Assembly (NCBI GenBank): GCA_016200785.1
Contig: JACQED010000321.1
Coordinates: 1 to 10,263, forward strand
Length of the DNA: 10,263 nt
DNA from: Chloroflexota bacterium
Lineage (GTDB): Bacteria > Chloroflexota > Anaerolineae > Anaerolineales > JACQED01
Direction of reading: 5' to 3'
Shown in pieces: positions 1,343-3,438 of this stretch (within the stretch, counting starts at the first letter, position 1; every line of letters begins with the position of its first letter). A model generated the notes under the pieces. The model worked only from the letters and a program-made list of their open reading frames with translations. It made no database searches and was not told the DNA's origin. The position numbers and the translations under genes were made by a program.

Positions 1343-1900
1343 TTAGGGCGGCGAGATCGGCGCTAACGACGTGACTTTCACCTGCATACCGGCGAATCCG
1401 AAAGTTGAGCACCCGCCTCTGAGCAGCCATTGCCCCCAGTAATCGGGATTGAGCCACAGCGCGTGATTGCTCAAATGAACGTCGATCTGGCGCGGGTATC
1501 CCCACTGATAATCGTAGACGACTTGCACGACGACCATGCCATTCGCCCGGCAATGATTGTTCTTCGCGTAGAATTCAATCTCGTCGAACAGACTCGTGAT
1601 CGTTCCTGCCCTGCGGCGGCAGGTGTTGTCGTAGAGGGTGACGACTTTCTCGTCTTTGATCTCCGCCTCTTGACGACACGTCATGCCCGTGTCGCTGAGG
1701 AGATCGAGCGCCATCCGATAGCGCAAAAAGGGGCGGGCAGCCCACAGGCGCTTGGCCGTAGCGAATCCGGGCACTGAGAGAATGCGCCAGAATTGCGCGG
1801 TCACCAGCCCGGCGACGGCTATCAGCGCGCAGGCGGGGATCACGCCGATGAAAATCAGCCGCCGGTGCTCAGCCAGAAATGAACGCCCGTTGCGTTTCAT
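1343..1900 (-). CDS. Hypothetical membrane-anchored protein (single N-terminal TM, Cys-containing beta-rich C-terminal domain). Function unknown; possibly an SPFH-partner protein.
   Basis: 185-aa ORF. Its start ATG overlaps the stop of the upstream fusion gene (ATGA). TM segment LIFIGVIPACALIAVAGLVTAQFW. GC content is about 53-57% in 60-nt samples, against about 65-70% in flanking genes. No motif recognised. Confidence 0.6.
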   Translation of the reverse strand: MKRNGRSFLAEHRRLIFIGVIPACALIAVAGLVTAQFWRILSVPGFATAKRLWAARPFLRYRMALDLLSDTGMTCRQEAEIKDEKVVTLYDNTCRRRAGTITSLFDEIEFYAKNNHCRANGMVVVQVVYDYQWGYPRQIDVHLSNHALWLNPDYWGQWLLRGGCSTFGFAGMQVKVTSLAPISPP

Positions 1901-3438
1901 GGCTGGGGCGGAAAAGTCTGCGCGCCGCCCGCGCCCGGCAGCCAGAGGTCGGTCGTCTGCAGGCGGACGGCCGAGTCGATGATGAACTTGCGCGCGCCGG
2001 GCAAGACCTTTTCGGCTTCTTCAAGATACAGCCGGATGCGGGTGACGCCCGGCGCTTTGGCGTACGCGCTCTGCCGGCTGGTGAAGAGCGCCGCGTCGCC
2101 GGTTGCCTGCGCGAGTTTTTCCGAACGATACCCGTTCGCGGCCTGGATGGCGGCCTCGGCATCGCCGCGCGCAACCGGCACAATTTCGTTTTGATACGCT
2201 CGCGCTTCGTTGATGAAGGTGTTTCTGTCTTCGCGCGCGCTGGCCACATCGCGAAAGGCATCGGCCACGTCGGGGGGCGGGCTGCTTTCCAGCAATTGCA
2301 CGCTGAGCACCGTCAGGCCGACTCGGTAGCCGTCGAGAGCCGATTGGGCGAGCGCGGCGGCGCGATTCTGCACGGCGGCCCTGTCCACGGTCAGCAGCGC
2401 ATCTACGCCCTCCTGCGCTACCACCTGACGCATGGCCGATTCTCCGGCTTGCGCCACCAGCGCATCGGGCGCGGCAGTGTTCAGCAGATAGGCCGCCGGG
2501 TCGCTCACCCGGTAATGCAAACTGAGTCGGACGGTGATCAGATTCTCGTCGCCCGTGAGCATGAGGTTGGCCGGAGTCTCGGCGCGGCGCACGGCGTTGA
2601 CCGCCACGGCGTCTGCGCGGTCAACGGGCCACGGCACGCGATAGTGCAGGCCGGGTGCGGCGTTCGCGTCGATCACGCGCCCGAAACGCCGGACGACGCC
2701 GATCTCGCCTGGCTCGATGAAGAAGAAACCGGACAGCAGATACAAACCGGTGAGGAGCACCGCCGCCACTGGGGCGAAGCCGCGCCAGACGGCCGAGGCG
2801 ACGGGCGGCCCGCCGTCAACGTCCAGCGGGGCTTTCCGCTTCAAGCCGCGCCGCGCCGAGGCGACGATCTCCCAACCGGAGAACAACACGAAGACGACGA
2901 CGACCGCCGCCGCCGCGCGATCGAGGCCGGGCAATCCCAGCGCCGCGCCACCCAGCCCGGCGACGACGACGATGGAGGCGTAGATGTCGAGTTGCGCGTG
3001 ATAGCCGCCGGCGATCAACGCCGGCGAGTTCGTCTGCCGGCCGACGTAACCCTCGTAACGGGCGAGGACGTAGGCCACCGGAATCGTCACCAGCGCCGCG
3101 AGCGCGGCCGGGCCGACGTTCGTCAGAGTCGGCGGCTCGCGCAGAAGCACCTCGCGGACGATGTCGAAGCCGCCATAAAAGAGGGCGGCGGCTACCCCGA
3201 TCGCGACCCAGTTCTCGAATTGCTTGATGTCGGACTGGAAGTTGCCGCGCGACGCGTCCCCGCGTGTGAGGAACAAGCCGATGAGGACGAGCACACCGGT
3301 CGCGGCATCGGCGACGGATTGGATGGCGCTGGCGCGGAGTGACAGACTGCCGGAGGCGGCGGCCAGCCAGAACTTGAAGCCGATGACCAGCGCGTTGACG
3401 AGGAGGGTGACGAAGACGGTTCGTTCTTTGCGATTCAT
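1897..3438 (-). CDS. Fusion protein: N-terminal cation-diffusion-facilitator (CDF)-like 6-TM domain joined to a complete HflK-like unit (TM plus SPFH/band-7 domain plus coiled-coil)
   Basis: 513-aa uninterrupted ORF. Residues about 1-200 are polytopic and carry CDF TM2/TM5-like signatures: SLRASAIQSVADAATGVLVLIGLFL (Q-x3-D where CDFs have H/D-x3-D) and ALIAGGYHAQLDIYASIVVVAGLGG (H-x3-D). After a basic linker (RRGLKRKAPLDVDGGPP) comes a further TM helix (VAAVLLTGLYLLSGFFF), then the SPFH domain IEPGEIGVVRRFGRVIDANAAPGLHYRVPWPVD...MLTGDENLITVRLSLHYRVSDPAAYL and an Ala/Gln-rich coiled-coil, as in HflK. There are 4-nt ATGA overlaps at both ends. Confidence 0.75.
   Translation of the reverse strand: MNRKERTVFVTLLVNALVIGFKFWLAAASGSLSLRASAIQSVADAATGVLVLIGLFLTRGDASRGNFQSDIKQFENWVAIGVAAALFYGGFDIVREVLLREPPTLTNVGPAALAALVTIPVAYVLARYEGYVGRQTNSPALIAGGYHAQLDIYASIVVVAGLGGAALGLPGLDRAAAAVVVVFVLFSGWEIVASARRGLKRKAPLDVDGGPPVASAVWRGFAPVAAVLLTGLYLLSGFFFIEPGEIGVVRRFGRVIDANAAPGLHYRVPWPVDRADAVAVNAVRRAETPANLMLTGDENLITVRLSLHYRVSDPAAYLLNTAAPDALVAQAGESAMRQVVAQEGVDALLTVDRAAVQNRAAALAQSALDGYRVGLTVLSVQLLESSPPPDVADAFRDVASAREDRNTFINEARAYQNEIVPVARGDAEAAIQAANGYRSEKLAQATGDAALFTSRQSAYAKAPGVTRIRLYLEEAEKVLPGARKFIIDSAVRLQTTDLWLPGAGGAQTFPPQP

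Follow-up and report, generated by a model that had tools for sequence, protein, structure and literature searches.

Results

A cation efflux domain joined to a complete HflK

The stretch of DNA analysed here, called the window throughout, comprises positions 1 to 10,263 of contig JACQED010000321.1 in assembly GCA_016200785.1, a metagenome-assembled genome (MAG) of a Chloroflexota bacterium of the order Anaerolineales. Its central gene, cdf-hflK (hereafter K1), lies on the minus strand at 1897..3438, stop codon included, and is followed downstream by hflC and the beginning of a second hflK gene, K2. K1 encodes a fusion protein of 513 aa in which the membrane domain of a cation diffusion facilitator (CDF) precedes HflK, which belongs to the SPFH3 subfamily of the SPFH (stomatin, prohibitin, flotillin, HflK/C) proteins. 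The reading frame is unbroken from the ATG at 3436-3438 to the TGA at 1897-1899, and the identical protein is entered at NCBI as ‘MAG: FtsH protease activity modulator HflK [Chloroflexi bacterium]’.

An earlier reading of the letters alone (the original prediction) had proposed such an in-frame fusion, and the profile searches carried out on the protein bear this out, both the Cation_efflux and the HflK profiles scoring above their cutoffs on a single open reading frame (ORF). The CDF domain, with six transmembrane (TM) helices, occupies residues 1-198 (2845..3438, minus strand), within which Pfam Cation_efflux PF01545 matches residues 8-198 with 93.4 bits (cutoff 26.6, E=2.1e-26) and spans profile positions 1-196 of 198. 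A K/R-rich cytoplasmic linker, residues 199-219 (2782..2844, minus strand), leads into a seventh TM helix at about residues 220-240 (2719..2781, minus strand), which is the ordinary membrane anchor of HflK. The HflK SPFH domains and coiled-coil region then follow at residues 238-489 (1972..2727, minus strand), matched by the NCBIfam HflK equivalog TIGR01933 over the same residues with 230.6 bits against a cutoff of 159.4 and by Pfam Band_7 PF01145 over residues 241-414 (E=2.8e-20). The cytoplasmic dimerisation domain found at the C-terminus of CDFs, ZT_dimer PF16916, gave no match in the Pfam scan of K1, the SPFH unit standing in its place as had been anticipated, and it is because this domain is absent that K1 falls just under the cutoff of the full-length CDF model TIGR01297 (75.9 bits against 82.35). 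The N-terminal motif MNRKERT is near-invariant across the K1 family.

Hydropathy and the AlphaFold model agree on seven helices, at residues 3-29, 32-60, 65-99, 108-135, 139-166, 171-201, and 214-235. The loops predicted to be cytoplasmic hold 13 Lys and Arg residues and those predicted to lie outside hold 3, a bias which places the SPFH part outside the membrane in the normal HflK orientation; the proposed layout of a six-helix CDF core and a seventh helix thus holds. An AlphaFold2 model of residues 1-238, built on an alignment 99 sequences deep, reached a pLDDT of 89.7 and a pTM of 0.84. When this model was compared to the PDB with Foldseek, ranks 1-30 were all CDFs (YiiP, ZnT1/3/7, SLC30A10), with TM-scores of about 0.6 to 0.67 and root mean square deviations (rmsd) of 3.3-4.3; for YiiP (5vrf_A) the values were 0.66 and 3.3. 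In a profile comparison to the PDB, FieF was aligned to the N-terminal part with E=2.9e-7. The CDF fold suspected for the first 230 or so residues is therefore well founded.

The C-terminal half is equally recognisable. In a phmmer search of PDB sequences, residues 223-489 aligned to residues 82-345 of Escherichia coli HflK (7vhp_E, E=1.2e-48), the alignment beginning at the TM helix of HflK so that K1 residue 223 corresponds to HflK residue 82, and Foldseek matched this half to 7vhq_E (E=1e-19); the model has helices at 389-460 and 464-478. K1 is HflK by all sequence and structure criteria tried and a CDF by domain and fold, and is one protein in which a cytoplasmic linker and a seventh helix join a CDF membrane domain to a complete HflK.

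Distribution of the fusion

The same architecture is found in more than 120 protein clusters. All of the best 120 homologue clusters (53-72% identity, 511-539 aa) carry both Pfam domains, and in a scan of one genome per species full-length copies were present in about 40 GTDB species. The hosts in the Chloroflexota are Anaerolineae and Kouleothrix aurantiaca, and those in the Alphaproteobacteria are Rhizobium metallidurans, Aminobacter aganoensis, Tianweitania, Chelativorans, Oricola, Nitratireductor, Carideicomes, and Allosediminivita; they include cultured isolates (K. aurantiaca, R. metallidurans, A. aganoensis, Chelativorans multitrophicus, and Nitratireductor indicus). In Aquibium oceanicum, a copy is carried on a closed conjugative plasmid (NZ_CP018172.1). 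The plasmid copy, together with an identity of about 58% between phyla, points to horizontal transfer of a mobile K1 module.

In all comparisons, the modules on two contigs with the labels ‘uncultured Methylomonas’ (L002) and ‘uncultured Verrucomicrobiota’ (L006) behaved in the same or nearly the same way as those of Anaerolineales contigs (L004, L007), with L006 and L007 sharing the same coordinates and identities. These two labels are probably errors of MAG binning or naming and not true hosts.

The breadth of this distribution bears on the simplest alternative, namely that a frameshift introduced by sequencing or assembly fused adjacent cdf and hflK genes in the MAG. The window does come from a low-redundancy MAG contig, and the exact protein is known from one contig only. 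However, the continuous architecture recurs in hundreds of independent assemblies, isolates and the closed plasmid included, the linker and seventh helix align across the family, and there is no remnant of ZT_dimer. An artefact has a negligible probability and was rejected. Neither a missing CDF match, nor a missing CDF fold, nor a frameshift was found, and the fusion is instead a conserved one.

When the CDF domain by itself was used in an exhaustive phmmer search, the family was extended further, as proteins of 510-620 aa with both a CDF and an SPFH part, at 27-49% identity, made up 58 of the best 150 representatives at 50% identity. The nearest unfused relatives of the K1 CDF domain are ordinary CDFs with ZT_dimer, often with an additional Nitro_FeMo-Co domain.

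The metal site, the linker and selection on the CDF domain

Profile alignments equate residues Q40, D44, H147, and D151 of K1 with the site-A residues D45, D49, H153, and D157 of YiiP. On the minus strand of the window, the first of these is the CAA (Gln) codon 40 at 3319..3321 and the second the Asp codon 44 at 3307..3309, both in TM2, whilst H147-x3-D151 in TM5 is encoded by 2986..3000. In the alignment of 120 sequences, the first position is His in 119, D44 and H147 are present in all 120, and D151 in 118; the four positions are also at least 90% conserved in the distant fusions and in stand-alone CDFs. Judged by these alignments, the family site is the canonical HD-HD arrangement, H40-D44 / H147-D151, of the Zn/Co/Cd type. 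Such an HD-HD site is typical of CDFs handling Zn, Co, and Cd.

The original prediction was right as to the TM2 and TM5 positions, which align with those of YiiP, and mistaken where it took Q-x3-D for a trait of the fusion. Among the 120 aligned sequences Gln is found at position 40 in the window protein only, in which three of the four site-A ligands are kept, and Q-x3-D was accordingly ruled out as a family signature. The CAA codon is one third-position change away from His and may be either a true substitution or a consensus error. A change of selectivity towards Mn, by analogy with Asn43 of SLC30A10, was considered for Gln40 and not adopted, given that a 2026 review reports Asn43 to be without significant effect on Mn transport (PMC13272668).

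The TM6-TM7 linker in the clade of the window protein is acidic and His-rich, with an HxH motif in 98 of 120 sequences (e.g., EGEAGHSH); in the window protein it has no His at all. Amongst the distant fusions, HxH or HH was found in 5 of 47, and a His-rich linker was thus rejected as a general trait of these proteins, being confined to the one clade.

The ratio of non-synonymous to synonymous substitution rates (dN/dS) was calculated for 63 orthologue pairs whose dS was unsaturated and which are not phylogenetically independent; its median was 0.038 in the CDF domain and 0.084 in the SPFH domain. On these sequence comparisons, the transporter half is clearly under strong purifying selection and is at least as constrained as the scaffold half. 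The window protein departs from the family at 2 of the 56 highly conserved CDF positions (H40Q and F50L), and the third-position GC content (GC3) of its CDF half, 0.87, is normal for the genome.

These observations can be set against the possibility that the CDF-like domain is vestigial or repurposed, a bulky membrane anchor or interaction surface which no longer handles metal. This would be more plausible for the window copy than for the family, as the former has a Gln at its first ligand, a linker devoid of His, an orphan gene before hflC, and no metal-gene context; the dimerising C-terminal domain, moreover, is absent from the whole family. Against this stand the family-wide dN/dS of about 0.04, the invariant HD-HD site, the mere two deviating positions in the window copy, and its ordinary GC3, and we consider such a loss of function improbable. 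General decay of the window CDF domain was itself ruled out, because only the 2 of 56 conserved positions deviate in a family with a dN/dS of 0.04.

Other transporters in the same position

A profile of the distant CDF-HflK fusions also retrieved HflK proteins joined to two other types of transporter. Those of the first type are about 1000 aa long, combine E1-E2_ATPase, Hydrolase, and Band_7 domains, lack an HMA domain, and have CPC 44 residues before DKTGT, as in a P1B heavy-metal pump (e.g., P0323, locus L055 8001-11015). The second are proteins of about 700 aa in which an ArsP_1 permease precedes Band_7 (e.g., P0367, locus L056 8001-10082). In the loci inspected, the distant CDF, P1B-ATPase, and ArsP fusions are each followed by HflC and then by a second HflK. 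The transporter slot of K1 is, on the strength of these domain compositions and gene orders, interchangeable between a CDF, a CPC-type P1B-ATPase, and an ArsP_1 permease.

In a neighbour-joining bootstrap analysis of the SPFH domains, support was obtained only for the HflC/HflK split (100%) and the clade of the window protein (99%), and for none of the deep nodes; we therefore make no claim as to domain swapping or independent fusion. On a Fusobacteria plasmid (CP102407.1, L058 2296-5697), a P1B-ATPase gene is followed after 13 nt by a separate SPFH/Band 7 gene, and the pair lies beside a metal-sensitive regulator. This pair may represent the ATPase-HflK fusions in unfused form.

The exchange of whole pumps is informative with regard to a second alternative, in which the CDF domain acts as the sensor of a regulator, mainly by binding metal and changing conformation, thereby opening or closing the HflK/C cage and tuning FtsH proteolysis, with net transport incidental. 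Several observations fit with a sensor: HflK/C modulates the Zn-metalloprotease FtsH (family annotation; PMC13086221), both an open ‘nautilus’ state and a closed cage exist according to the titles of PDB entries 9cz2 and 9paw, and the linker of the window's clade is a His-rich cytoplasmic segment. However, that linker is missing from the distant fusions (5 of 47 have it), the four transport-site residues and many TM positions are very strongly constrained, and the sister fusions carry full P1B-ATPase pumps with CPC and DKTGT intact, which a sensor would hardly explain. As full P1B pumps occupy the same slot, a sensing role is disfavoured and seems to us rather unlikely, and the purifying selection on the CDF domain, taken with the P1B-ATPase replacements, favours a working exporter over a pure sensor.

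The module and its arrangement in the window

In every related locus with enough flanking sequence, the gene order is K1, hflC, K2, and then usually a gene for a peptidyl-prolyl isomerase (PPIase), which in the most divergent locus is upstream instead of downstream. hflC immediately adjoins K1 in about 40 related loci, and its products score about 185-195 bits on TIGR01932. K2 encodes a second HflK paralogue with an ordinary single-TM N-terminus, which is 43% identical to the SPFH half of K1; full-length K2 proteins score 207-249 bits on TIGR01933. The PPIase is a membrane-anchored, PpiD-like protein of 560-800 aa with two parvulin domains.

In the window, hflC (319..1230, minus strand) encodes a partner SPFH subunit of 303 aa, which scores 194 bits on TIGR01932 against a cutoff of 134. 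Its stop codon is overlapped by the ATG of K2 (317-319), of which the 5' part, encoding the single-TM N-terminus, occupies 1..319 on the minus strand and continues beyond the end of the window; this part is 67% identical to the K2 of Kouleothrix (E=6e-24). As the window ends inside K2, the position of the PPIase gene lies beyond it.

K1 and hflC are separated here by an orphan ORF of 185 aa (1343..1900, minus strand; NCBI tag HY260_12160), whose start overlaps the K1 stop codon (ATGA). It has an N-terminal hydrophobic segment, a GC content of 0.59, lower than that of its neighbours, and a GC3 of 0.75. Apart from itself, no homologue was found in a database of 5.8 billion sequences, no counterpart was present in any related locus examined, and its weak Pfam match to DUF6174 is under the cutoff. 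The spacer between the orphan ORF and hflC contains a near-perfect hairpin of 75 nt (1259..1333, minus strand; minimum free energy -53 kcal/mol, z=-7.05) composed of CACGAAG/CTTCGTG repeats. Taken together, the orphan ORF and the hairpin have the appearance of an insertion in the operon. Some Anaerolineales loci have a different hydrophobic ORF, of 101 aa (L006 7606-7911), in a K1-hflC gap of about 400 nt; with small ORFs that differ from locus to locus, this junction seems to tolerate insertions.

Upstream of K1 and co-directional with it are thpR, for an RNA 2',3'-cyclic phosphodiesterase (3435..4055, minus strand), and an alpha/beta hydrolase gene (4052..4840, minus strand). The successive stop and start codons of the hydrolase gene, thpR, and K1 overlap, and this context is specific to the window, not being kept with the module in related loci. 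Further away lie genes for a DUF4956 membrane protein (5144..5635, plus strand), an AIR-synthase-related protein (5647..6648, plus strand), a phosphofructokinase (6709..7782, minus strand), and an 819-aa protein with three GAF domains, a PAS domain, and a class III nucleotidyl cyclase domain (7779..10238, minus strand), none of which is kept beside the module in related loci. An Rfam scan of the window gave no matches, and a promoter and terminator scan found nothing informative for the operon. Two sigma-70-like near-consensus matches (12/12 and 11/12) on the plus strand, at 4866-4893 and 5101-5129, precede the DUF4956 gene, in the intergenic region between divergent genes; 0.6 matches would be expected from shuffled sequence.

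Metal homeostasis genes around the module

The richest surroundings were seen on the Aquibium plasmid NZ_CP018172.1, on which an island (L057 10299-25012) runs from a two-component system through an IS3 element, cdf-hflK, hflC, hflK, the PPIase gene, and a ZntA-like P1B-ATPase gene (NF008262, 840 bits) to genes for PCu(A)C, SCO, DsbB, and thioredoxin. The IS3 insertion separates the kinase gene from cdf-hflK, and genes for CopC, CopD, further PCu(A)C and SCO proteins, and an Nramp transporter are found nearby. When these neighbours and those of the Kouleothrix module (NicO, a CopM-family DUF305 protein, and DUF3105) were used as tblastn probes, at least one probe-type metal-homeostasis gene was found within 6 kb at 30 of the 41 genome loci. 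An OmpR/EnvZ-like two-component system lies just upstream in about 30 of these 41 loci. In the remaining 6.8 kb of the window no metal genes were found. The window copy is an atypical one, with H40Q, a linker without His, an orphan gene after it, and no metal genes nearby, all of which may have changed its activity or its specificity for metals.

The nature of these neighbours lends some weight to a third alternative, a metallation chamber. Here the CDF, P1B-ATPase, or ArsP exporter would do more than rid the cytoplasm of metal: it would pump metal into the closed extracytoplasmic lumen of the cage, the confined pool serving to load or refold exported proteins together with the PPIase and nearby metallochaperones. 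In favour of this, a PPIase gene almost always comes fourth, metallochaperones that act outside the cytoplasm and enzymes of thiol-disulfide exchange are encoded nearby (PCuAC, SCO, the CopM-family DUF305 protein, DsbB, and thioredoxin), and the titles of PDB entries 7vhp, 7wi3, and 9paw describe E. coli HflK/C as a closed periplasmic cage. However, PCuAC and SCO handle copper, whereas the HD-HD site of the CDF is typical of Zn, Co, and Cd; the client protein is hypothetical, and the CDF domain may lie either inside or outside the ring of TM helices. We regard a metallation chamber as unlikely.

Discussion

The reading which we favour by a modest degree is that the K1 module forms a scaffolded metal-efflux platform, in which a pump is held in the same microdomain as the quality control of the cell envelope, represented by the PPIase and possibly by FtsH. 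By homology to the E. coli 24-mer, K1, HflC, and K2 would together build an SPFH cage of the HflK/C type, with a functional exporter attached at some of the HflK positions, along the edge of the membrane patch that the cage encloses. If it behaves as other CDFs do, the CDF domain would export a divalent metal in exchange for protons, and the ‘caged’ exporter would remain with the protein quality control of the envelope, again the PPIase and possibly FtsH, during metal stress. Metal export, cage assembly, and any link to FtsH are inferred for the K1 module. The roles suggested in the original prediction, a metal-sensing scaffold or a transporter gated by an FtsH scaffold, are likewise hypothetical.

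A number of observations weigh against an efflux platform and it should be considered with corresponding caution. The working form of a CDF is a dimer, to which the C-terminal domain normally lends stability, and CDF domains spaced around an HflK/C ring may not be able to dimerise. The window protein has neither the full set of four metal ligands nor the His-rich linker, and metal genes were absent from the vicinity of the module in some loci, among them those of the window, Rhizobium sp. AN80A, and R. metallidurans. The two-component system adjacent to the module scores best as OmpR/EnvZ-like and not as a member of the heavy-metal subfamily, and the SPFH phylogeny leaves a common origin of the three transporter fusions unestablished. 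ftsH was found in none of the neighbourhoods inspected, though in E. coli too it is unlinked to hflKC.

The module bears a clear resemblance to the HflK/HflC-FtsH system of E. coli (PDB 7VHP, 7WI3, 9CZ2), in that the C-terminal 290 residues of K1 are about 35% identical to HflK 82-345, hflC is a shared partner gene, and in both systems the N-terminus is inside and the SPFH domain outside. In place of the short cytoplasmic tail of E. coli HflK, however, K1 has a six-helix CDF domain and no HflK_N; the operon has two HflK paralogues together with HflC, and usually a PPIase, and it lies outside of the hfq-hflX-hflKC context; a partnership with FtsH is putative. With respect to the CDFs (TC 2.A.4; YiiP/FieF, CzcD/ZitB, ZnT), K1 has the same six-helix fold, the same TM2 and TM5 site-A positions, and, as a family consensus, the HD-HD of the Zn-type site, but differs in having a seventh helix and an extracytoplasmic SPFH region in place of ZT_dimer, and in the Gln as first ligand in the window copy. 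A CDF without the C-terminal domain has a precedent in MmCDF3 of Maricaulis maris, which binds Zn and Cd according to the account of Russell and Soulimane (2012) given in PMC4995437; going by that account, the domain would be dispensable for metal binding. The likeness to K1, drawn from the same description, is that both are CDF membrane domains without a cytoplasmic domain, although MmCDF3 stands alone and has no scaffold.

Other systems offer looser parallels. In Pseudomonas aeruginosa, the Zur-regulated genes PA2434-PA2439 place the P1B-ATPase HmtA beside three HflK/HflC-family genes; these are raised 9-14 fold on Zn depletion, with the protein level raised too (PMC4542158, PMC11761036). 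The PaFlo5-6-7 operon of three SPFH genes, which is probably PA2437-PA2439, has a patchy distribution, looks to be horizontally transferred, and is of unknown function (PMC13086221). The hmtA cluster is likened to the K1 module by its description only, and differs in that the genes are separate and HmtA is described as an importer. The PacL scaffolds of Mycobacterium tuberculosis (PacL1/CtpC), which assemble P1B-ATPases into efflux platforms (PMC9374683, PMC13043812), share with K1 the idea of a metal-efflux pump that depends on a scaffold or chaperone in the membrane for its assembly into platforms, and their cytoplasmic D/H-rich metal-binding motif is comparable with the E/H-rich linker of the window's clade. 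PacL is, however, a small DUF1490 protein which acts on the cytoplasmic side, has no covalent fusion to a pump, and forms platforms that are flotillin-independent. In the stomatin-aquaporin-1 structure (PDB 9zd2, from its title), an SPFH oligomer is physically bound to a polytopic transport protein; the stomatin-type regulation of channels and transporters in eukaryotes differs, however, in its non-covalent association, in an SPFH domain that faces the cytoplasm, and in its unrelated clients.

No paper describing a CDF-HflK fusion, or indeed any fusion of a transporter to HflK, was found in full-text literature searches, and a transporter fusion is unmentioned in the classic survey of prokaryotic SPFH proteins (PMC2636767). 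This agrees with the original prediction, in which no described example was known, yet hundreds of copies are already in the databases annotated simply as HflK, a naming by automated pipelines which hides the transporter half. K1 of the window belongs, as a somewhat unusual representative, to an apparently undescribed class of HflK proteins tethered to transporters, a class which is large and mobile and is set in a three-SPFH module connected with metal homeostasis.

The wider proposition, which we put forward tentatively as possible but still doubtful, is that HflK/C-type SPFH cages have a dedicated and widespread role in housing heavy-metal transporters. Its basis would be the fusion of three unrelated folds (CDF, P1B-ATPase, and ArsP) to one HflK of a three-subunit cage, with hmtA and PA2437-9 of P. 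aeruginosa and the pair on the Fusobacteria plasmid as its candidate unfused parallels. It has long been asked what the SPFH scaffolds (HflK/C, stomatin, prohibitin, flotillin) organise, and their clients have mostly had to be deduced by indirect means. Here the client, a metal exporter, is covalently attached to the scaffold, repeatedly and with different classes of transporter, in a compact operon which crosses phyla and is located in metal-resistance islands. This makes testable the hypothesis that SPFH cages serve as metal-efflux or metallation platforms tied to envelope proteostasis, as there are cultured and probably tractable hosts (A. aganoensis, R. metallidurans, A. oceanicum, and Chelativorans) and a defined complex for cryo-electron microscopy. 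If the proposition is true, the fusions would be natural ‘client-tethered’ SPFH cages. They would show which contents an SPFH microdomain surrounds and for what purpose, one example being a confined metal compartment outside the cytoplasm that is linked to the folding and quality control of proteins.

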